Positions 10,105 to 64,000 of a DNA stretch of 64,000 nucleotides are shown in pieces. Position 1 is the stretch's first letter, and each line of letters opens with the position of its first letter. The DNA comes from an uncultured Gammaproteobacteria bacterium (GTDB lineage: Bacteria > Patescibacteriota > Patescibacteriia > UBA10025 > JAHIVO01). The translations under genes and the position numbers were made by a program. A model generated the notes under the pieces. That model made no database searches, was not told the origin of the DNA, and worked only from the letters and a program-made list of their open reading frames with translations. The stretch is taken from the NCBI GenBank assembly GCA_964415025.1, contig CAYPXF010000001.1:9390-73389 (forward strand), in the 5' to 3' direction.

Positions 10105-11148
10105 TTATTCTTTCAATGATAATTCTTTTACGCTGATCCCATAATCTAAAAACCATTGTTTGATTTCTTTTTGTGTTGCCCGTACGCTTATGTTCTTTCT
10201 TTTTGTGATCATTTTTTGCGCTCCTGCTAATGCATGGAGCCACCCTTTACACACCGCATATACAAGCTTAACAAACGAATACTCCTTAACAAAATTACCT
10301 GATGATCCTTTGTGCGTCACTATGGCTACCGCTTGGTACGTATACCGTTTACATGAGTAATATATACTTGCCAGTATCATGCCCAGCGGCAGCAGTTTGA
10401 TGATAAACCAGATCCTGTTTCTCTCGATATAATACGCTTTTCGAGGAGAATATTTACCGGTCGTAGCGGAATACATATGATACACCCTCGCGTCAGGAAT
10501 AAATTTTGCTTTCCAGCCGGCGAGGCGTCCTCGAAAACCCAAATCGCTGTCCTCGAGGTAGAATTGAAAATCTTCATCGAGGAGTCCGATCTCATCAAGC
10601 ATTTTTTTGCTATACACCCCCCCACAACCGCTTGGCATTAAAATATCAGATTTATTATCAAATTGTCCCTCATCAGATTCCATTCTCCCCCTTCCTCTGC
10701 ATATCCCGTCCCGATAAATAATCAATCCTGTACTATCAATTATTTTTTTATCATAATAATTTAATATTTTTAATGCCCACATACCTGTCATATCCCGCTG
10801 GTTTTGTATGGTTTTGAGGATAGCAGCTAAACAATCTTCAGCGAGTTCAACATCATTATTAAGAAGTAAAATATAGTCCCCGCGAGCGTGTCGAATGCCA
10901 GCATTATTTCCAGCGGCATACGTATTTATTTTATTGACAATAGTTTTTATTGAAGGGAACTGTTTTTTAATATACTGAACAGAATTATCTGTGGAACCAT
11001 TATCTACAACAATAATCTCAAAATCAGATATTGTTTGTCGAAACAGTGATGGCAAACATATTTGTAAGCATTCTAAACCATTATAATTTAATATGACTAC
11101 TGATATAAGCGGATTTTTTGAAATTTCAGCCTCAAGCATTTGGATCAA
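10105..11148 (-). CDS. Glycosyltransferase family 2
   Basis: ISVVILNYNGLECLQICLPSL...IIVVDNGSTDNS is the GT2 signature. Confidence 0.8.
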   Translation of the reverse strand: MIQMLEAEISKNPLISVVILNYNGLECLQICLPSLFRQTISDFEIIVVDNGSTDNSVQYIKKQFPSIKTIVNKINTYAAGNNAGIRHARGDYILLLNNDVELAEDCLAAILKTIQNQRDMTGMWALKILNYYDKKIIDSTGLIIYRDGICRGRGRMESDEGQFDNKSDILMPSGCGGVYSKKMLDEIGLLDEDFQFYLEDSDLGFRGRLAGWKAKFIPDARVYHMYSATTGKYSPRKAYYIERNRIWFIIKLLPLGMILASIYYSCKRYTYQAVAIVTHKGSSGNFVKEYSFVKLVYAVCKGWLHALAGAQKMITKRKNISVRATQKEIKQWFLDYGISVKELSLKE

Positions 11149-37796: not shown

Positions 37797-37951
37797 AACT
37801 ATGATAAAACAAAATGTTCTGCGGTAAGTAATTCATCAACTGCATACCGGGAAAATCCGGTAAAAGCTTTTCCTCCCTCTAATTGCGAGGCGTGCTGGCG
37901 TAAAGCCGTTTTCTTAACCTCACCGTCAATTGGTATGGTTATGGTAGGTGT

Positions 37952-38393
37952 TTAGAACGCCAGGCGATCAATATAGTGCGGTGCCTGGCGGCGCCTGGTT
38001 AGCCATTCAGCCGCTGATTGCTGCAGCCGTAATGGCAATGTCGCTGCGGCAAATGGTAAGTGGCATTGAGCTGCTAATTGTTGCGCTCGTGCTTCCACCG
38101 CTATATGATCCACATGACCGGATATGCCATCGGGACCAAAACTAATGATTATCTCTGGCCGAAATGATCGTATTACCTCATCTCCTTTTGCACGCACCTC
38201 GTCGCTGTGCCGTGAAACGTGACGTACCGCTTGGACCGGGCGTGGCACACACGAGCGCATTACCCCCGCCCGCTTCAATATTTTTGTGCAAGGTTCCGGC
38301 AGCAACATAGCTCTCGTCTTCAGGATGAGCAGTAATCATGAAAATCTTCTTGCCTAGAAAAGTTTTCATTCTAACATTCTTAAGAATGTTCAA
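37952..38393 (-). pseudogene. PIG-L/LmbE-family N-acetylglucosaminyl deacetylase, split by a frameshift into two ORFs (38178..38393 and 37952..38308)
   Basis: The N-terminal frame has MITAHPEDESYVAAGTL (HPDDE motif). The -1/+1 frame has RPEIIISFGPDGISGHVDHIAV (HxDH motif). The two frames overlap by 131 nt (38178-38308), and a C5 homopolymer at 38276-38280 is a plausible indel site. The true start is probably the ATG at 38369, after the TTG inside the operator palindrome. Confidence 0.55.
38373..38390. promoter_or_regulatory. 18-bp perfect palindrome AACATTCTTAAGAATGTT, a candidate ArsR-family operator overlapping the RBS of the PIG-L gene
   Basis: Perfect dyad. A second identical copy lies at 38700-38717 in front of arsR1. 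Each copy sits 4 to 21 nt upstream of an ATG start. Confidence 0.5.
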
Positions 38394-38696
38394 TTAAATC
38401 TTACCGGTCTTCGCACGACTGCCCAGTATTTGCCGGCAAACACCAGACCCCCTGAATGAATCTGCCAGTGAATAATAATGGTATTTCCCTTTTCGTATCC
38501 GTTGCACCATACCTTCACGCTCAAGCCGATTAAGGTGGAATGAAGCAGTTTTATACGAAAATTTCAGTTCACAAGTAATTGACATTACTGAATGCGGTTT
38601 TTTTGCAATCGTTTTAATAATCATCATTCGTCGTTCATTGCTTAATGCTCTGAACGCCCGAGCAAGCTGCTTTATAGTATACGTCATATTATTCAT
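38394..38696 (-). CDS. ArsR/SmtB-family transcriptional regulator. No metal-sensing CxC or DxHx10H motifs are visible.
   Basis: LSNERRMMIIKTIAKKPHSVMSITCELKFSYKTASFHLNRLEREGMVQRIRKGKYHYYSL is a winged helix of ArsR type. The ORF-track start (38720) is a TTG inside the palindrome, and the likely true start is the ATG at 38696 (MNNMTYTIKQL). Confidence 0.8.
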   Translation of the reverse strand: MNNMTYTIKQLARAFRALSNERRMMIIKTIAKKPHSVMSITCELKFSYKTASFHLNRLEREGMVQRIRKGKYHYYSLADSFRGSGVCRQILGSRAKTGKI

Positions 38697-38699
38697 TCT

Positions 38700-38717
38700 A
38701 ACATTCTTAAGAATGTT
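38700..38717. promoter_or_regulatory. Second copy of the AACATTCTTAAGAATGTT palindrome, immediately upstream of arsR1 (autoregulatory operator candidate)
   Basis: The 34-bp block cattctaacattcttaagaatgttcaa is duplicated at 38367-38400 and 38694-38727. Confidence 0.5.
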
Positions 38718-38730
38718 CAAGTGAAATATA

Positions 38731-58253: not shown

Positions 58254-58514
58254 TTAGTCTTTTTTACCCTGTACTTCAGTAATTGTCAGCTCTCTGCCTT
58301 TGCCTGGCTTAATAACAAGTTCTGCTTTTTCTGCGATAGTATTTTTTTTGACCAGATCAAAATTAAATAAGAGATTTTCCGGGGATAATTCTTCATTATG
58401 CGCTACGATTTTCCCCAAACGAACAGTAACAGTATCAACTGTTTTTAAATTATTTTCTTTAGCTGTGTGCAGGACGGCTTTGACAATGTCCTGCGCCGCT
58501 ACGAGGTCATGCAT
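58254..58514 (-). CDS. HypA-like hydrogenase nickel-insertion protein lacking the zinc-finger domain
   Basis: N-terminal MHDLVAAQDIVKAVLHTAKENNLKTVDTVTVRLGKI resembles the HypA N-terminus (MHE...). The protein is only 86 aa and has no cysteine residues. Confidence 0.55.
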   Translation of the reverse strand: MHDLVAAQDIVKAVLHTAKENNLKTVDTVTVRLGKIVAHNEELSPENLLFNFDLVKKNTIAEKAELVIKPGKGRELTITEVQGKKD

Positions 58515-58552
58515 ACTTTGGCTTGTGGCACGTGGCGTATAGCACGATGCCT

Positions 58553-58903
58553 TTAGTTAATCGTCTTTTTAAATGCGTTGAGTTTTTTAATCAGCAGTTC
58601 TGCTTCTTTGTATAGATCAACGAGTAATTTGTCAGCTATAAACTCTCTTTCTTTACAGAACTGTAATAATGAAACAGTCTCGAGCGCCGACTTAATGGCT
58701 ATATCGATAAAGTTTCTGAAATCGCGATTTGTCGTACCGCCGGAACCTTCAGCGATATTATTGGAAATAGAGACTGCAGCTCTTTTCAGCTGCGAAGACA
58801 TCCCAAATAACTCTTCCTTTGGTAAGGTATTAGCAAAATCATATAGTCTGTTACCATAAGCTATAGCTAATTGCCAAATTTCTAATTGCTCAAACCTGAA
58901 CAT
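58553..58903 (-). CDS. Four-helix-bundle protein (the family frequently encoded in 23S rRNA intervening sequences)
   Basis: FEQLEIWQLAIAYGNRLYDFANTLPKEELFGMSSQLKRAAVSISNNIAEG. The start was trimmed to the internal ATG at 58903. Confidence 0.7.
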   Translation of the reverse strand: MFRFEQLEIWQLAIAYGNRLYDFANTLPKEELFGMSSQLKRAAVSISNNIAEGSGGTTNRDFRNFIDIAIKSALETVSLLQFCKEREFIADKLLVDLYKEAELLIKKLNAFKKTIN

Positions 58904-58962
58904 ATGTTTTCTTCTTACTAGTACACGCAATACACTACAAGCTTTATGCCACGAGCTACACG

Positions 58963-60219
58963 CTAGTGAGTAGCACACGTCATGCACGGATCATATGCCC
59001 GGATCATCATGGCCAGCTTGCGCTGGTTAGCCGTACTCATTGTTTTCATCGAGCCCATATACTGCCGCAGGTCATCTTCCAGGTTATTAATAAACTGCGC
59101 GGTCGGGGTAATGATATTAACATTTTTCAATACGCCGTTTTTATCTGTTTCGTAATAATGTAATAAAATACCGCGCGGCGCCTCGATGGCGCCTACACCT
59201 TTACCAGCGCGTACTTTATATTTTTCCATGGGTTTAATGTGTTTTGTTTTAAAATACTGCTGTAATAATTTTTGCGCCTCTTCGACAAAATGGATCATTT
59301 CAATCCCCTGGCAATACACATTATAAAATGAATTGGTAATGGGCAGCTTAATATTAATATGCTTATAAGCCTGCCTGGCAATAGGATTTAATTGCTGGTG
59401 ATTATTATTAATCCGCGACAACGCGCCCACAAAATAAGCCTTGCCCTGATACTCCGTGCGCTTAACATAATCATCATCGCTGTGGATTTCCACGACTTTT
59501 TTCATGAATTGCTTGGGCGTCATGTCCAGCCCCTGGGTAGAGCCAATCCGACCGTCATAAAAGGCGTATTCTTTTGGATTAATCAGTGAAATATATTCAG
59601 TTGTACGGTTAAATTTATTGAATTTTAAATGTGAAATAAAATGCGCCAGCTCGACAGCTCCCTGGAGCGCTTCCTGGCTTTGCTCGTATAGCTCATGCAA
59701 CCGGCGTTTATCCGGCATCTTCAGAAAACCGCCTACCTGCGAATTAACCGGATGCAGGGCCCGGCCGCCGATAATTTCCGTAATCAAATTGCCAAACTTG
59801 CGGATAGTGAGGGCATGAGCAGAATATTCCGGCGCAATATCAAGTAAGTCCAGGGCTGAATCCTTGCCATAGAAATCAGGTATACTCATAAAATACGCGT
59901 GCACCCCGTGGCTGGTCAGCATTTGGCCCAGCATCATGAGTTTGCGCAGAACAACGGTCGGCTGCTGGACCTTTACTTTCATGGCATCTTCTATCGCTTT
60001 GATGGCCGTCAGGTTATGCACCACCGGACACACGCCGCAAATACGCGACGTCACCAGCGGCCCGTCCATATAGTTACGGCCGATCAGCACGCCCTCCATT
60101 AATCGTGCGCCTTCTAACGTTTGGTAGCGCGCCTCGGCCATATTACCGGACTTGAGCGCTCCCCAGAAGGTCGCGTGTCCCTCAATACGTGTAATGTGTT
60201 TTATTTTAACAGTTTTCAT
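58963..60219 (-). CDS. [NiFe]-hydrogenase large subunit, short form, with no C-terminal extension
   Basis: Has RIEGH, the L1 motif RICGVCPVVH, and the L2 motif DPCMTCATH followed directly by the stop codon. 418 aa. Confidence 0.9.
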   Translation of the reverse strand: MKTVKIKHITRIEGHATFWGALKSGNMAEARYQTLEGARLMEGVLIGRNYMDGPLVTSRICGVCPVVHNLTAIKAIEDAMKVKVQQPTVVLRKLMMLGQMLTSHGVHAYFMSIPDFYGKDSALDLLDIAPEYSAHALTIRKFGNLITEIIGGRALHPVNSQVGGFLKMPDKRRLHELYEQSQEALQGAVELAHFISHLKFNKFNRTTEYISLINPKEYAFYDGRIGSTQGLDMTPKQFMKKVVEIHSDDDYVKRTEYQGKAYFVGALSRINNNHQQLNPIARQAYKHINIKLPITNSFYNVYCQGIEMIHFVEEAQKLLQQYFKTKHIKPMEKYKVRAGKGVGAIEAPRGILLHYYETDKNGVLKNVNIITPTAQFINNLEDDLRQYMGSMKTMSTANQRKLAMMIRAYDPCMTCATH

Positions 60220-60274
60220 AAGTAAGTAATCAGTAACTGGTAACTAGTAATAAGTACGTATGCTTTATTTACAA

Positions 60275-61084
60275 TTATTTTTTCTTTTTAACCTCCTGCT
60301 GTCTATACCACTGTTCCTGAATCCCGAATATCTGCAGAATGTGTTCCAGTTGCTTGCGGCTGATGAGTTTTAATAACTGCTTTTCCAGCTGCCTGGTATC
60401 ATAGCCAGGTAAAATACCGCGGCAGCCTTTGCAAAAGAATTTGGAGTTCAGGCAGACCGCGTTGCACCCGCCACGAATGACCGGACCCAGGCACGGCTCG
60501 CCTTTTTGCAAGAGGCATTCGTTGCCATTGAGCTGGCATTCGTAGCATACCGGATTTTCCAGAATTTGCGGCGGGACGCCTTCGCGGATCGCGTTAAGCA
60601 CAGCCACAAAGTCTTCACCGATCGGCGGACAGCCAGGGATGATGAAGTCCACCTTGACGAAACGACTGATCGGCCTGATATTAGGATTAAAAACTTTTTG
60701 GTATGTCTTGGGAAACTGATACCGCACCGCCTTTTCTTTATCCATGTAATTTTTAATATTGGGGATAACGCCGAAATGCGCGCAGGCGCCGATGCCGATC
60801 AAGTAATCAGCCCGCTGACGTATTGCTTTCAGAGACTTGATATTCGCCTTAGTCAGCGGCGCGCCCTCGATAATAGCCACGTCATAGTGCGCGTCTTTTT
60901 TCTTTTCCTCCATGATGATAAAAAAATCTCCCAGCTCAAAATGGTCGATCGAGGCGATAAACTCCTTGCCCATGTCCAAAATAGACACCGAACAACCGTC
61001 GCAGGAAGTTAGTCCAACAATAGCGACTTTGAGTTTTTTCTTGCTACTTTTCTTCGACATTTTTATATTACTATTTCTACTCAT
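60275..61084 (-). CDS. [NiFe]-hydrogenase small subunit
   Basis: LTSCDGCSVS, GACAHFG and IIPGCPP are the Fe-S ligands and the GCPP motif. 269 aa with a K-rich N-terminus. Confidence 0.8.
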   Translation of the reverse strand: MSRNSNIKMSKKSSKKKLKVAIVGLTSCDGCSVSILDMGKEFIASIDHFELGDFFIIMEEKKKDAHYDVAIIEGAPLTKANIKSLKAIRQRADYLIGIGACAHFGVIPNIKNYMDKEKAVRYQFPKTYQKVFNPNIRPISRFVKVDFIIPGCPPIGEDFVAVLNAIREGVPPQILENPVCYECQLNGNECLLQKGEPCLGPVIRGGCNAVCLNSKFFCKGCRGILPGYDTRQLEKQLLKLISRKQLEHILQIFGIQEQWYRQQEVKKKK

Positions 61085-61616
61085 TTATAATATTTGTTAT
61101 ATGAGTGTTAATTCCACTGTCAGCAGCCAACTGCGTAAAATCATTAATCTCTTTAATTATCGAACCGCCAATATTTCTTACCTCTTCAATTGATTTAGCT
61201 TTTTTTGTATCAGCGTGCATATATAAATTTCTATAACGATGATACATGCTTCCAATAATTATTATGTGATCAAGCAGCTCTTTTTTTGTTTTTAAATCAA
61301 TATTCCTCTTGTAATCTTTTGAAGTCTGTTCAGAATTAGAAATCATATCAATATATTCAGAAAATGCTTCCTTGTTCTTACCTTCATTATCATATAGGTA
61401 TCTCCCTAAATGTTTTGGCTTTATTTCTGGGATAAAAGGAATATAGCCTACTGATTGCAAAATATCAAACAAATATTTTTCAAAAGCTTTACATATTGGT
61501 TGAAGGTATAATGAAAAATCGTGAAGATTAATCCTTTTAATACAATCATTATCAAGTAATAGTAGAAAGTCATAAACCCAATCCACAAAGTCATCATATT
61601 CTATAAGGTATTTCAA
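61077..61616 (-). CDS. Hypothetical protein encoded by an AT-rich insert in the hydrogenase operon. It contains an Rx4H motif (possible HEPN-like).
   Basis: 179 aa. The gene is about 33% GC, against about 50% for its flanks. It has MYHRYRNLYMHAD in its C-terminal third. Confidence 0.4.
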   Translation of the reverse strand: MKYLIEYDDFVDWVYDFLLLLDNDCIKRINLHDFSLYLQPICKAFEKYLFDILQSVGYIPFIPEIKPKHLGRYLYDNEGKNKEAFSEYIDMISNSEQTSKDYKRNIDLKTKKELLDHIIIIGSMYHRYRNLYMHADTKKAKSIEEVRNIGGSIIKEINDFTQLAADSGINTHITNIINE

Positions 61617-61701
61617 GACTTTTGTATCAAAATGCTTCGAAAGTAAAGAATACCTAGGATCAGATTCAATTTTATGGCCTAAAGCAATATCTTCTAATCT
61701 T

Positions 61702-61917
61702 TTATCCCTTACTATAAGAATTAAAAAGTTTTAATCGTTCTGTTGCTTCTTTTTTATCTAGTTTGTAGACCGCGAAATTATTTTCATTCATCACATAGTC
61801 CCCTACCTTTACTTCCGGAACCAGTCGCGTATCGAGCGTGTGCGTGTCCTCACCGCAGGCAACGGTGGCCTGCGTACCTTTGAGTTTTATTATTTTGTGG
61901 GGGATGGTGAGACACAT
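61702..61917 (-). CDS. hypC: Hydrogenase maturation factor HypC/HupF
   Basis: Starts MCLTIP (conserved N-terminal Cys2), and is 71 aa. Confidence 0.8.
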   Translation of the reverse strand: MCLTIPHKIIKLKGTQATVACGEDTHTLDTRLVPEVKVGDYVMNENNFAVYKLDKKEATERLKLFNSYSKG

Positions 61918-62028
61918 AGCTACTACCGTTTTAGTTAATGGGTTTAGTTTTCGCTGCGCGTATCGTTAAAGGGTTTCGTATAACGTTTGACGAAAACGAT
62001 ACGGGCCACGACAACGCAAACAAAAACT

Positions 62029-62838
62029 CTAACTACTAAACATCACTCCCTCTCTGGACATTTTAATCTTTTGTAAATCATCTTCCCGCCACAGCCGGTG
62101 GAAATCAACGTCTTTCTTTGTTTCATCGATTATCTGGCCAGTCATGTCCACATTAAAAAAAGTTTCCTTGGCATAGTCGATAGTCGCTACCTTATCACCC
62201 AGCACTTGCTTGATCGTCCGTTGCATAAATGCCTTCTGGTCCTGCTGCTGCTGGAGCTGTCGGGCTAGGAGCTGTAATGGTTTTGTGTCAGCACTGGCTA
62301 TAATAACACCGAAATGATGAAATACTGTTTGTCCAAGCCGAACCTGTACTGCTCCTGGCACTAGTACGTGGGAAAATGTAACCGTTTGGTTACAAACTAT
62401 TACCTCTACTTCAGCTAATTGGCGCTGGTCAATAGAGCGCAGTGATTTGATAGTACCGATGGTCAGCACGTGGGCCAGGGCATAAGACGGCCCGAACAGC
62501 AGATGTGACTGATTTTCCTCGACCGCATCCACGTGATCCAGGGCAAAGCATTCTAACATATTAACCGCACTGATGCGTGTCAATCCACGTTCGGCGGCAT
62601 AAGCGGCGATAGATGAGGGAAAAGCCGTAATAATATGGGAGGAAATATCAAGTAATAATACCGGCTGGCCGGTCAAAAACTTCGCCAGATTGACGTCTGC
62701 CTTGCAGCCAGGATGGAGAAATAAATGCACCAGTATCTCCACCGCGCCCGGCTCCAGAATAATATTCTCGAAATTATCAAACGACAGCCGCCGGGCTTGT
62801 TCGAGATTTTTTAATATTGCTTGGGTATGAGAATTCAT
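62029..62838 (-). CDS. Hypothetical protein co-located with hypC. The size and layout are reminiscent of DUF4213+DUF364 putative metal-chelation proteins, which is very tentative.
   Basis: 269 aa with no hard motif. An ArsR-type operator palindrome lies 13 bp upstream of its start. Confidence 0.35.
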   Translation of the reverse strand: MNSHTQAILKNLEQARRLSFDNFENIILEPGAVEILVHLFLHPGCKADVNLAKFLTGQPVLLLDISSHIITAFPSSIAAYAAERGLTRISAVNMLECFALDHVDAVEENQSHLLFGPSYALAHVLTIGTIKSLRSIDQRQLAEVEVIVCNQTVTFSHVLVPGAVQVRLGQTVFHHFGVIIASADTKPLQLLARQLQQQQDQKAFMQRTIKQVLGDKVATIDYAKETFFNVDMTGQIIDETKKDVDFHRLWREDDLQKIKMSREGVMFSS

Positions 62839-62850
62839 TTTTTACAATTA

Positions 62851-62868
62851 AACATTTTTGGAAATGTT
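62851..62868. promoter_or_regulatory. AACATTTTTGGAAATGTT inverted repeat, a candidate ArsR2 operator upstream of the 269-aa gene
   Basis: It has the same half-sites (AACATT / AATGTT, N6 spacer) as the 38.4-kb palindromes. A second copy lies at 63171-63188. Confidence 0.5.
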
Positions 62869-62871
62869 TTA

Positions 62872-63156
62872 TTATTTGCTACTGGTAATTTGTTTAAACA
62901 CTCCTGATGATCGAAACTCTTTAGATAATGTATAAAATGTATTTTTTCCCTTACGTACTTTTTGAATAATTCCTTCCCGCTCCATTTTACTTAGGTGAAA
63001 TGATGTTGCCGGAAAAGAAAGAGATAATTGTTCGCTTAACTTGCCAGCACTTGTTGAGCCTTTTGCTAACAGCTTAATTATTTTCATTCTACGTTCATTA
63101 CCCAAAACACGAAATACTCGTGATAGTTTAGTTGTAGAGAATGTATGCCTGGGCAT
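62872..63156 (-). CDS. ArsR/SmtB-family transcriptional regulator (paralog of the 38.4-kb arsR)
   Basis: LGNERRMKIIKLLAKGSTSAGKLSEQLSLSFPATSFHLSKMEREGIIQKVRKGKNTFYTL. About 50% identical by eye to the other ArsR. Confidence 0.8.
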   Translation of the reverse strand: MPRHTFSTTKLSRVFRVLGNERRMKIIKLLAKGSTSAGKLSEQLSLSFPATSFHLSKMEREGIIQKVRKGKNTFYTLSKEFRSSGVFKQITSSK

Positions 63157-63167
63157 GGTTATATCAA

Positions 63168-63974
63168 TTAAACATTTTTGGAAATGTTTAATATTAATTC
63201 ATTCTTAAATGATTTTATACGCTGTATGCCAATAATCAATCCTATTCCAATTAGCATCAAGACAACTCCACCGACCTGTATTAACGACCAACCTACACCC
63301 TGATTCGCAATAATTGTAATCAAACCTGTAATCGGCGCACCGAGCGCTAATATGGCCGTGGCTACTGACGCACGCACATGTTTTAGGCCATGGTAAAATG
63401 TAAATACATAGCCGAACAAAAACAACGAAGTAATAATAATCCATTTCCACTGCTCGGGATTATACGCAAAAACCGCGCCTATCTGTCTCGTGCTCAATAA
63501 ATAGAAGGAAATAAATACTGCGCCAAAAAACATTCGTCCCCAGGCTACCAGACGGGCAGATAGTTGCGCCAAAGCTTTTTTTGATATAATAATTTCTGCC
63601 GCCCAAAACAGCGTGGCTAAGAAAACCAAACCATCGCCCCAGCCAATACCGCTCGGTCTGATGCCGAGAAATAATATGTTACCGATTAATAACGCTCCCA
63701 GGCCGAATAGCAAACTTTTATTCAGTTTCTCTTTCAGAAAAATAATTGCCAAGAAACCGACGTATATGAACATCGTCTTATGGATAAACGAACCCTGAGC
63801 CGGAATAGTCATGGACAATCCTTTGAAAAAGAGAAGGAATGGTATAGCGCCGCCAACCAGGCCGATAGTTATCAGCTGATACCATTGTTTCCGTGTCAAC
63901 TGTTTAATCTGCGGCCATTCTTTCAAAAGTAGAATAACGGAAAAGAATAAAACACCGACGAGCAGATTTTTCAT
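63168..63974 (-). CDS. EamA/DMT-family transporter (10-TM permease)
   Basis: 268 aa with 10 predicted helices and the duplicated EamA-like half architecture. Confidence 0.65.
   Translation of the reverse strand: MKNLLVGVLFFSVILLLKEWPQIKQLTRKQWYQLITIGLVGGAIPFLLFFKGLSMTIPAQGSFIHKTMFIYVGFLAIIFLKEKLNKSLLFGLGALLIGNILFLGIRPSGIGWGDGLVFLATLFWAAEIIISKKALAQLSARLVAWGRMFFGAVFISFYLLSTRQIGAVFAYNPEQWKWIIITSLFLFGYVFTFYHGLKHVRASVATAILALGAPITGLITIIANQGVGWSLIQVGGVVLMLIGIGLIIGIQRIKSFKNELILNISKNV
63171..63188. promoter_or_regulatory. Second copy of AACATTTTTGGAAATGTT, upstream of arsR2 (autoregulatory operator candidate)
   Basis: The block caattaaacatttttggaaatgttt is duplicated at 62845-62875 and 63165-63195. 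Confidence 0.5.
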
Positions 63975-64000
63975 GCCGGTAAATACCGCCGGGTTGCTGA

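Follow-up and report, generated by a model that had tools for sequence, protein, structure and literature searches.

Each of the two small regulator genes in the 64-kb stretch of DNA analysed here (the window), arsR1 and arsR2, lies between two copies of a perfect 18-bp palindrome, and dozens of related uncultured bacteria show the same layout. The explanation we consider probable is that each palindrome is a DNA operator of the small ArsR/SmtB-type protein encoded between the copies, which would repress its own gene and gate the next transcription unit. Strong comparative evidence makes it very probable that the palindromes are operators of the proteins they bracket, and makes it plausible that the regulator of each module controls both its own gene and the next one, as the first-pass annotation of this DNA had proposed. 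To our knowledge, experiments have revealed almost nothing of how Patescibacteria (the candidate phyla radiation) control transcription, and a literature search returned nothing relevant on the motif or on bracketed ArsR operators in this group. The finding supplies a Patescibacteria regulator family together with its probable DNA site.

Palindromes in the 64-kb window

The pattern AACATTNNNNNNAATGTT (AACATT-N6-AATGTT) has exactly four perfect matches in the window, at the coordinates reported in the first-pass annotation, where 0.02 were expected from shuffled sequences and no shuffle reached four. When two mismatches were allowed only five extra sites appeared, giving nine in total against 6.99 expected, which is the chance level for the window. 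All four perfect palindromes flank the only two ArsR-like ORFs found in the window, and the genes of both modules are on the minus strand. In module 1, both palindromes are AACATTCTTAAGAATGTT. Putative operator O1a (38700..38717) lies upstream of arsR1, and O1b (38373..38390) between the arsR1 stop codon and the start of a PIG-L pseudogene; they are embedded in 34-nt repeat blocks (38692-38725 and 38365-38398) that are 94% identical. In module 2, both palindromes are AACATTTTTGGAAATGTT, within 28-nt blocks (63165-63192 and 62845-62872) that are 96% identical. Putative operator O2a (63171..63188) is upstream of arsR2, forms the extended dyad ATTAAACATTT-TTGG-AAATGTTTAAT and doubles as coding DNA for the last six codons of an EamA gene, while O2b (62851..62868) lies 12 nt upstream of the start (62838) of a gene specifying a 269-aa protein.

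The half-sites had been described as identical in the two modules, and this is true of the hexamer cores only, as the extended half-sites differ: GAACATTC-TTAA-GAATGTTC for ArsR1 and AAACATTT-CCAA-AAATGTTT for ArsR2. A flank thought to be common to both, CAATTAAA, is present at three of the four sites and absent at one, and the side on which it lies relative to gene direction is opposite in the two modules.

The ArsR1 and ArsR2 proteins

Gene arsR1 (38394..38687, minus strand; alternatively 38394..38696) encodes a 97-aa minimal ArsR/SmtB-type winged-helix protein, and arsR2 (62872..63156, minus strand) a 94-aa protein of the same type without cysteine. The second ATG of arsR1 (MTYTIKQ...) is likely to be the start, judging from alignment with homologues that begin M(V/I)Y(S/T)TKRL; the alternative ATG, at 38696, is 3 nt past the palindrome. 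The N-terminus MNILKNVRM, suspected earlier of being an ORF-calling artefact, is indeed one: it stands in the mechanical ORF list and arises when TTG AAC ATT CTT AAG AAT GTT AGA ATG is translated across the palindrome. Both proteins are members of the ArsR/SmtB family by Pfam score and by likeness to solved structures. They match PF01022 (HTH_5) at 33.2 bits (ArsR1) and 44.0 bits (ArsR2), above the gathering cut-off of 22, and a profile of four family members matched HlyU, SqrR, CzrA and CadC in the PDB at E-values of 1e-12 to 1e-9. With SmtB and NolR included, the ArsR/SmtB matches to this profile span 2.6e-12 to 1e-6, and the best solved relatives are HlyU (4k2e, E 2.6e-12) and SqrR (6o8k, E 9.4e-12). 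ArsR1 and ArsR2 are 46% identical, and with a palindrome pair around each, the description of two bracketed ArsR paralogues is upheld.

The canonical metal-site motifs are missing, as had been noticed at the outset. The cysteine-containing ELCVCDL-type alpha3/alpha3N motif is absent, ArsR2 having no cysteine and the two cysteines of ArsR1 not being conserved in homologues, and neither protein has the alpha5 ligands (Asp/His/His/His(Glu)), the tail after the wing being 18–25 residues without histidine. In ArsR2 this tail is 18 residues long, with one acidic residue and no aspartate. The suggestion that a redox or thiol signal is sensed instead finds no support, since ArsR2 and most close homologues have zero cysteines; a conserved cysteine pair of the BigR/SqrR type was sought, and ArsR2 and the proteins of loci L003, L064, L126, L130 and L132 contain none at all. 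What the family does conserve is a C-terminal tail motif, SF(K/R)xSG(I/V)F(R/K)QI. With both metal and thiol sites absent, ArsR1 and ArsR2 may be ligand-independent homeostats, or may respond to a signal through this tail.

Position relative to promoters and start codons

The four sites were originally thought to overlap ribosome-binding sites and start codons. The former does not hold, since a Shine-Dalgarno-like motif accompanies only five of the 48 window genes and none of the four palindromes; what the sites touch or overlap is -10-like elements and start codons. The window palindromes lie 3–15 nt from start codons and abut predicted -10-like hexamers, one of which is found 2–7 nt upstream of each site, although these are matches to a consensus in DNA rich in A+T, and their counts do not exceed the shuffle expectation. 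At L130 and L132 the arrangement ...AATGT-TAGAAT-N7-9-ATG occurs at both arsR and the 269-aa gene, a geometry in which the right half-site merges with an extended -10 (TGnTAGAAT), and arsR1 has TAGAAT-N7-ATG. Among the matches listed, 25 of 56 arsR genes have a -10 hexamer of at least 5/6 ending 3–12 nt before the ATG, with a mode of 6 nt. Genome-wide, -10-like hexamers just before starts are not significantly enriched (16 of 48 genes, with 12 of 48 in displaced controls), so it is only the conserved TAGAAT-N6-9-ATG of the arsR loci that points to leaderless transcripts. At the TAGAAT position module 2 has a poor hexamer (TTAATT or TTTAAT), which makes its promoter uncertain. In the wider family the gap from core to start is variable (21–52 nt, mode 33–37, among the matches listed). 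The core at L016 is centred near -47, a position that activators also use; for the mechanism proposed below, we infer repression rather than activation.

Conservation in related genomes and metagenomes

A word-indexed homologue search with ArsR2 returned ArsR2 itself only, an exhaustive HMMER search gave homologues P0004 and P0005, and a related-locus search from a four-sequence alignment gave three loci. ArsR homologues with 50–57% identity to ArsR1/ArsR2 occur in five other genomes of Patescibacteria (L003, L005, L064, L130 and L132). The 18-bp core is found on both sides of arsR in all of these but L005, where the upstream copy is split, and the core of O1a lies upstream of the homologues in L003, L130, L132 and L064. 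The core is identical in eight of the nine intact sites of the five genomes, and the flanks are not conserved. More distant relatives have other palindromes in the same places: at L126 (42–50% identity) sites of the type GGAACGTTCGAACGTT bracket arsR, and on the Saccharibacteria contig L004 (30–37% identity) ATTCGCGCGAAT is present on each side of it. The bracketing layout therefore outlives a change of palindrome sequence. Public data contain about 1,800 protein clusters of the regulator family.

Metagenomes were scanned for two such palindromes 290–320 nt apart, and at least 120 stretches matched; the spacing of about 320 bp at these loci has a range bounded by the scan window itself. About half of the matches listed (class B, mostly Ga0209679) were set aside as an unrelated dispersed repeat, AAAACATTTGCAAAAATGTTTT, which is present in many copies per contig, is accompanied by no ArsR ORF and has no match in Rfam. 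At 56 or more non-redundant loci the palindrome pair brackets an ArsR-like ORF of 88–95 aa. The central hexamer was left unconstrained in the scan, and is the same or the reverse complement within 52 of 56 pairs among the matches listed; 10,000 shuffles averaged 26 and never exceeded 35. The first flanking position also co-varies symmetrically in the 56 pairs among the matches listed, being C...G or T...A.

Among the close downstream neighbours in the matches listed, about a quarter (9 of 34) are convergent with arsR, so the downstream site cannot in every case be the operator of a downstream promoter. The initial picture of a simple two-gene switch is too narrow for the wider family, and bracketing is better seen as a property of the regulator cassette.

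The hydrogenase cluster and module 2

The first gene behind O2b encodes the 269-aa protein (62029..62838, minus strand), which is Patescibacteria-specific and conserved, with about 46 loci, matches no Pfam family, and has a central OB barrel resembling HypC. It is followed on the same strand by hypC (61702-61917), a 179-aa ORF (61077-61616), the [NiFe]-hydrogenase small subunit (60275-61084) and large subunit (58963-60219) genes, a gene for a 23S-IVP-type four-helix protein (58553-58987) and hypA (58254-58514), with Pfam as the basis of the assignments. They all point the same way and are closely spaced or overlap, and a terminator scan of 61500-63500 reported no intergenic terminator-like site in that part, so 58254..61917 is probably the rest of the O2b transcription unit.

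Module 2 had been placed at the head of the hydrogenase run, which is incorrect. Upstream of O2a is an EamA-family transporter gene (63168..64000, minus strand, cut by the window end), and upstream of that, beyond the window end, are the hydrogenase beta (Fer4_22) and gamma (NAD_binding_1) genes. The arsR2 cassette is thus in mid-cluster, between EamA and the 269-aa gene. At the corresponding junction in 12 related clusters, seven are filled with the arsR cassette and five are empty; in the empty ones the EamA and 269-aa genes share 20 nt and no residual palindrome is seen. The two states are interspersed on a tree of concatenated HydG, EamA and 269-aa sequences, with L129 (empty) pairing with L132 (filled) at 100% bootstrap and L003 (filled) with L128 (empty) at 88%. 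The proposal that the hydrogenase is under ArsR-type control can be retained for, at most, the distal half of the cluster, and given the mid-cluster position and the absence of the cassette from five of 12 clusters, such control would be an optional, lineage-specific addition. The distal half (269-aa protein, HypC, small and large subunits) would lie behind a putative ArsR operator in some lineages and not in their close relatives, and the filled and empty clusters constitute a natural experiment on wiring a regulator into an operon.

The nominal target of module 1

Behind O1b, as the nominal target of ArsR1, comes a PIG-L/LmbE-type deacetylase sequence (37800..38369, minus strand; PF02585), listed in the first-pass annotation as a gene. 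It is a pseudogene with a frameshift: profile positions 2–47 and 85–126 are in different frames, about 37 profile positions are missing, and there is an in-frame TAA.

Proposed mechanism and alternative explanations

In the mechanism we propose, an ArsR homodimer would read the two half-sites AACATT/AATGTT, whose centres are 12 bp apart. Bound to the upstream copy, in the promoter and start region of its own gene, it would repress itself. The downstream copy, being the same promoter-proximal block placed before the next gene, would allow ArsR to gate the next transcription unit, and a protein bound there could also stop read-through. The unit gated by ArsR1 would be the decayed PIG-L gene, and that gated by ArsR2 would comprise the 269-aa gene, hypC, the small and large hydrogenase subunits and hypA. 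Putative operator, arsR and putative operator together make up a cassette conserved in Patescibacteria, which some lineages carry at the hydrogenase locus and others lack.

It is conceivable, but rather unlikely, that the palindrome-arsR-palindrome unit is mainly a portable cassette with its own promoters, in which the end palindromes are recombination or insertion ends, with or without an operator role. As a self-contained repressor cassette it might, at similarly long odds, have been gained and lost repeatedly at operon junctions of Patescibacteria. A promoter and operator at both ends would let it enter operons without polar effects and capture downstream genes, a notion we hold equally loosely, and the wHTH protein or a recombinase of the host could possibly move it by working on the palindromes at its ends. 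Filled and empty states that alternate exactly at the EamA/269-aa junction (7 against 5 loci) and are mixed on the tree fit this reading, as do the highly diverse gene neighbours of the 56 loci among the matches listed. In its favour, too, the repeat itself supplies the last codons of the regulator gene (KTF-stop) and of genes ahead of it, EamA for one, several genes in a row at L016 and L081 are punctuated by palindromes, and the copy in a closed genome adjoins restriction–modification and SMODS/SLATT defence genes. Against it, there is no transposase or recombinase between the repeats, only a wHTH protein of about 90 aa, and a comparison of L132 with L129 gave no clear target-site duplication. 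Near-identical copies in different contexts were not found either: cassette pairs that are at least 98% identical share their flanks, so recent transposition was rejected, and at 87% identity L066/L083 shares the left flank and only L009/L044 has unrelated flanks. Host and ArsR trees roughly agree, as fits vertical descent with allele replacement by homologous recombination. If the cassette is portable after all, it would represent a type of mobile regulatory module that is not known to have been described, and an example of regulatory modules that spread as units.

The symmetry of the palindromes would also suit RNA hairpins, acting as terminators or insulators at the ends of arsR transcripts or as RNA-stability elements instead of protein-binding DNA. 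Flank changes are symmetric and compensatory-looking and keep the dyad, the 38-nt consensus of a CTGCAG subfamily folds at -23.8 kcal/mol (z = -7.4), and the 3' end of arsR is where the downstream copy sits, in some cases with a convergent gene on its other side. The four window sites, on the other hand, form only weak hairpins (-6 to -8.2 kcal/mol) that no U tract follows, and the terminator scan reports none at the palindromes, so an intrinsic terminator was rejected there. Pairing gives no reason for sequence identity among genomes whose ArsR proteins differ by 25–50%, nor does it account for the joint change of palindrome and protein in L126 and L004, and in most family members the upstream copy precedes the likely -10 and would lie outside the arsR mRNA. 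RNA hairpins are an improbable explanation. Least credible of all, with very little in its favour, is that the sites serve another, unlinked factor or are a functionless by-product of local duplication. The within-module copies do look as if recently duplicated, being 94–96% identical over 28–34 nt, but over 60 independent loci show the bracket, which is kept even where the palindrome is a different one and is always linked to an ArsR-like gene, and the window holds no further copies of the palindrome. An attC/integron reading, which the AAC...GTT ends and punctuated arrays might invite, was set aside, given short and perfect palindromes of constant sequence and a search of the surroundings by eye that showed no integrase.

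Comparison with known systems

The preferred reading, operators of the bracketed ArsR proteins, has well-known parallels in SmtB/smtA, CzrA/czr, CadC/cad and ArsR/ars, which are autoregulated repressor–operator systems with 12-2-12-type inverted repeats. Their regulators belong to the same Pfam family as ArsR1/ArsR2 and include structural relatives of them, and the systems share a small winged-helix protein (here a proposed dimer), a palindrome at its own (here predicted) promoter and a regulator gene in first position of the unit that it would control. They differ in that ArsR1/ArsR2 lack the alpha3/alpha3N cysteines and the alpha5 His/Asp/Glu site, the proteins here are only 91–97 aa, a second copy of the operator block puts one on either side of the regulator gene, and the target is not a metal-resistance gene. 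HlyU, BigR/SqrR, NolR and PagR are non-metal ArsR regulators that act on palindromic sites, and the solved structures closest in sequence come from this group. BigR and SqrR depend on a conserved cysteine pair and HlyU carries a redox-sensitive cysteine, whereas the present family has no conserved cysteine.

The C proteins of restriction–modification systems are tiny HTH autoregulators whose palindromic C-boxes, at a leaderless or short-leader promoter, gate the downstream gene. By analogy, the arsR cassettes may be seen as a comparable layout of small autoregulator and palindromic boxes, but C proteins have an Xre-type HTH instead of an ArsR wHTH, C-boxes are in tandem and upstream where the palindromes here bracket the gene, and the modules of the window contain no restriction–modification genes. 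REP/RAYT elements and integron attC cassettes likewise have a gene flanked by cognate palindromes, an analogy that would be purely architectural. The arsR cassettes come with neither an HUH/Y1 transposase nor an integrase, their palindromes are short and perfect and keep a constant sequence, and neither the window nor the 20 kb around the cassette of the closed genome shows dispersal in multiple copies.

Recognition helix and operator sequence

The two paralogues would keep their sites apart through the extended half-site and the centre, TTAA for ArsR1 and CCAA for ArsR2. In the recognition helix, L126 and L004 have S-K-H-L where the predicted AACATT binders have S-F-H-L, a co-variation of helix residue and operator that comprises only two independent cases. 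In the large CTGCAG subfamily, AACATT is paired with an S-Q-H-T helix, which is neither S-F-H-L nor S-K-H-L.

Palindrome-bracketed ArsR genes in the window

The observation of palindrome-bracketed ArsR genes is confirmed, and the first interpretation placed upon it is partly supported. Exactly four exact matches to AACATT-N6-AATGTT occur in the window, lying where the first-pass annotation had placed them, compared with 0.02 expected from shuffled sequences; if up to two mismatches are allowed there are nine sites against 6.99 expected, so the extra ones are at chance level. In module 1, where all genes are on the reverse strand, the copies at 38700-38717 and 38373-38390 flank arsR1, and the order, read 5' to 3' on that strand, is recJ, palindrome, arsR1, palindrome, a PIG-L-like ORF and RNase H. 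In module 2, also entirely on the reverse strand, the copies at 63171-63188 and 62851-62868 flank arsR2 (62872..63156), the order being EamA, palindrome, arsR2, palindrome and a 269-aa gene (62029..62838), followed by hypC, a 179-aa ORF, the hydrogenase small and large subunits, an IVP-type protein and hypA.

The palindromes sit within longer direct repeats, which measure 34 nt in module 1 (94% identical) and 28 nt in module 2 (96%). On the coding strand, ...TTG-AACATTCTTAAGAATGTT-AGAATGAA... precedes arsR1 and the PIG-L ORF alike, and ...AAACATTTCCAAAAATGTTTAATTG... precedes both arsR2 and the 269-aa gene. The half-sites had been described as identical in the two modules, which holds for the hexamer cores but not for the extended half-sites and centres (GAACATTC-TTAA-GAATGTTC in module 1 versus AAACATTT-CCAA-AAATGTTT in module 2). 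All four sites are 3–15 nt from start codons, and the upstream copy of module 2 doubles as the last codons of EamA (...LNISKNV-stop). The N-terminus MNILKNVRM was rightly suspected of being an artefact, as it is a read-through of the palindrome from a TTG. The proposed overlap with ribosome binding sites did not hold up: a Shine-Dalgarno motif is present at none of the window sites, and similar motifs are scarce, preceding only 5 of the 48 large ORFs in the whole window. Several window genes have TATAAT-like hexamers 4–8 nt ahead of the ATG; enrichment of -10-like hexamers near ATG is not significant in the window (16/48 genes versus 12/48 controls).

ArsR1 and ArsR2 each score above the Pfam HTH_5 threshold, share 46% identity and belong by sequence to the ArsR/SmtB family; the window has no other ArsR-like ORF. 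The N-termini of homologues, M(V/I)Y(S/T)TKRL, match the MTYTIKQL of ArsR1 when read from its second ATG, so the likely coordinates of arsR1 are 38394..38687. The downstream PIG-L gene is a PIG-L/LmbE-type deacetylase pseudogene (37800-38369, reverse strand), with Pfam positions 2-47 and 85-126 in different frames and about 37 profile positions absent, followed by an in-frame TAA. Although this gene has decayed, arsR1 and its two putative operators are intact.

Canonical metal sites are missing, as had been noted: the stretch that follows the wing is too short to hold an alpha5 site and has none of its ligands. ArsR2 contains two histidines only and no cysteine, and cysteine is also absent from the ArsR proteins of five comparison loci (L003, L064, L126, L130 and L132). 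Metal sensing and thiol sensing are thus both unsupported, the latter having been suggested earlier as a redox or thiol-based signal, and these proteins lack the sequence features tested for both of the corresponding ArsR subgroups. Their sole conserved extra feature is a C-terminal SF(K/R)xSG(I/V)F(R/K)QI motif. The protein may be a ligand-independent homeostat, or may act via some partner.

Close relatives and a wider family

Close homologues were retrieved by an exhaustive profile search (few found), a genome scan (three loci) and look-ups of the 269-aa family (more). In L003, L064, L130 and L132, ArsR is 50–57% identical to ArsR1/ArsR2 and the same core lies on both sides of arsR, while L005 has an intact downstream copy and a split upstream copy. 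Of the 9 intact sites in these five loci, 8 match the 18-bp core AACATTCTTAAGAATGTT exactly, and the surrounding DNA is unconserved. Two more distant relatives have the same layout with another palindrome on both sides of arsR, of the GGAACGTTCGAACGTT type in L126 and ATTCGCGCGAAT in L004 (Saccharibacteria). The recognition helix of both has S-K-H-L, versus S-F-H-L in the putative AACATT binders, a suggestive co-variation of predicted recognition residue and palindrome, in two cases only. Ahead of both arsR and the 269-aa gene, L130 and L132 have GGAACATTCTTAAGAATGT-TAGAAT-N7-9-ATG, a full predicted extended -10 promoter joined to the operator and duplicated on either side of arsR. Two putative operators (L005 2440-2490; L126 3940-3995) are interrupted exactly at the dyad centre, by 22 nt in L005 (upstream copy) and 35 nt in L126 (downstream copy). 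Both inserts have AACGGGAC at or near the 3' end, terminal in L126 and followed by AAGT in L005, and that of L126 has a small hairpin of its own.

When metagenomes were scanned for pairs of AACATT-N6-AATGTT sites 290–320 nt apart, with the central hexamer unconstrained, at least 120 stretches were returned, and roughly half of those listed are an unrelated dispersed repeat. The sequence AAAACATTTGCAAAAATGTTTT (often with TTACATGTAACCAC) is found in many copies per contig and in both orientations in L018, L034, L041 and about 50 other Ga0209679 contigs; this dispersed repeat is not accompanied by an ArsR gene and matches nothing in Rfam. In at least 56 non-redundant loci the pair brackets an ArsR-like ORF of 88–95 aa (consensus MKTSKQLERYFKGAANHRRIDIL...FKTISQHTRSLVQAGLLNKKYRGRQV.HSLSPYGK.FLKFMKTF). 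This protein family comprises 1,767 clusters in public data. Its named members come from Sungbacteria, Giovannonibacteria, Yanofskybacteria, Liptonbacteria, Parcubacteria, Paceibacterota and Patescibacteria and carry no annotation beyond that of a generic wHTH regulator.

The palindrome of this CTGCAG-type subfamily is about 38 bp, ACAACATTCC-AACATTCTGCAGAATGTT-GGAATGTTGT. Its central hexamer agrees within 52 of the 56 pairs listed (shuffle mean 26, maximum 35), and the first flanking position alters symmetrically, from C...G in the upstream copy to T...A in the downstream copy, where the T provides the regulator's TAA stop; the final codons of that gene (KTF-stop) lie within the repeat. Among the loci listed, the core ends 21–52 nt before the ATG (mode 33–37), and the modal spacing would place the palindrome over the -35 region. 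A -10 hexamer (at least 5/6 match) ends 3–12 nt ahead of the regulator ATG, most commonly 6 nt, in 25 of the 56, a predicted placement that fits leaderless mRNAs. Some contigs have extra copies ahead of neighbouring genes; L016 has three successive units, each with TGTATAAT, and L081 and L054 are likewise punctuated. A closed Giovannonibacteria genome (L134; CP066687.1, 492254-512541) has no copies within 20 kb beyond the two bracketing ones. There the cassette adjoins a type I/IIG restriction–modification system and SMODS/SLATT defence genes, with LexA-like and Fic genes also nearby, and the region looks like a variable island. Just past the downstream palindrome of several CTGCAG-type cassettes is a G+C-rich hairpin, AATACGCC-N7-8-GGCGTATT, then an A run (L066 ~800-830, L067/L119, L083, L062/L071, L134 ~10310-10345). 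Locus L043 (3942-4300) contains tandem repeats with an 84-nt period, with AACATTATTCGTAATGTT in each unit and no associated ArsR-like ORF.

Proposed mechanism

On the best-supported reading of these sequences, a dimeric winged-helix protein would occupy both copies and repress sterically. An ArsR dimer on the upstream copy would give autoregulation, and one on the downstream copy would control the next unit, possibly as a roadblock to read-through. Module 1 allows two geometries. In one, the -10 would be the TAGAAT directly behind the core, and arsR1 would be leaderless; in the other it would be a TG-extended TATATT 7 nt ahead of the core, with the operator spanning about +1 to +20. Both would predict repression. 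Module 2 has only weak -10-like hexamers: TTTAAT overlaps the core, and TAATAT or AATAAT lies 2 nt ahead of it. Since the AT-rich DNA of the window has no more consensus promoter matches than expected by chance, these geometries are candidates only. The two-gene autoregulated switch envisaged at first retains the bracket and its comparative support, but the nearest downstream gene within 100 nt, by crude ORF calls, is co-directional in 25 and convergent in 9 of the loci listed, indicating that the second copy is part of the cassette and not always the promoter operator of the next gene.

Chance, or an unlinked factor, is excluded as an explanation by the recurrent linkage of the palindromes to ArsR-like genes. 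The palindromes could instead be RNA hairpins or terminators, and the 38-nt CTGCAG-type element does have a strong predicted hairpin (-23.8 kcal/mol), making an added RNA-level role conceivable in that subfamily; the window sites, however, fold weakly (-6 to -8.2 kcal/mol), have no U tract, and are not called by a terminator scan. The proposed repression has a similar logic to that of autoregulated ArsR/SmtB repressor–operator pairs. Unusual features are the constant bracketing of a minimal regulator gene by one and the same promoter-proximal palindrome, the broad distribution of this bracket in Patescibacteria, and the fact that it is optional within a hydrogenase operon. Text searches of the literature found no description of the motif or the bracketed arrangement. 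The main value is a large, testable regulator–operator family in a phylum for which hardly any regulatory data exist.

The hydrogenase locus

Module 2 had been thought to head the hydrogenase run, but a contig of the same organism extending past the window end (L001) has the genes for the beta (Fer4_22) and gamma (NAD_binding_1) subunits and EamA upstream of arsR2, which places the module inside the cluster. Behind its putative downstream operator the genes are co-directional, with gaps of 111, 85, 55 and 38 nt and two overlapping pairs, and there are no terminator-like sites in the intergenic gaps reached by a scan of 61500-63500, so a single transcription unit through to hypA is plausible. 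The 269-aa protein belongs to a family confined to Patescibacteria and has no Pfam domain. Among 12 related clusters, EamA and the 269-aa gene are separated by arsR in seven (the window, L003, L005, L064, L126, L130 and L132), and in the five empty ones (L127, L128, L129, L131 and L133) there is no palindrome and the two genes overlap by 20 nt. This natural contrast at a hydrogenase operon is of further value.

On a tree of concatenated HydG, EamA and 269-aa proteins (835 columns) the two states are intermixed, empty L129 grouping with filled L132 (bootstrap 100%) and filled L003 with empty L128 (88%), which implies at least two gain or loss events at this junction. Such polymorphism, along with diverse neighbours and gene ends encoded by the repeats, favours a portable palindrome-arsR-palindrome cassette. 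Against mobility, there is no recombinase gene, and neither near-identical copies in differing contexts nor a clear target duplication were found. Since the ArsR and host trees are roughly congruent, vertical descent with allele replacement by homologous recombination explains the pattern as well as repeated insertion does.

By subunit content (beta, gamma, small and large) the hydrogenase cluster (window 58254-64000 with L001, L126 and L127) is group 3b-like. It is interrupted by unrelated genes, namely EamA, arsR, the 269-aa gene, a variable ORF and a 23S-IVP-type four-helix protein, and relatives have Ldh_2 and PQ-loop genes between those for the small and large subunits.
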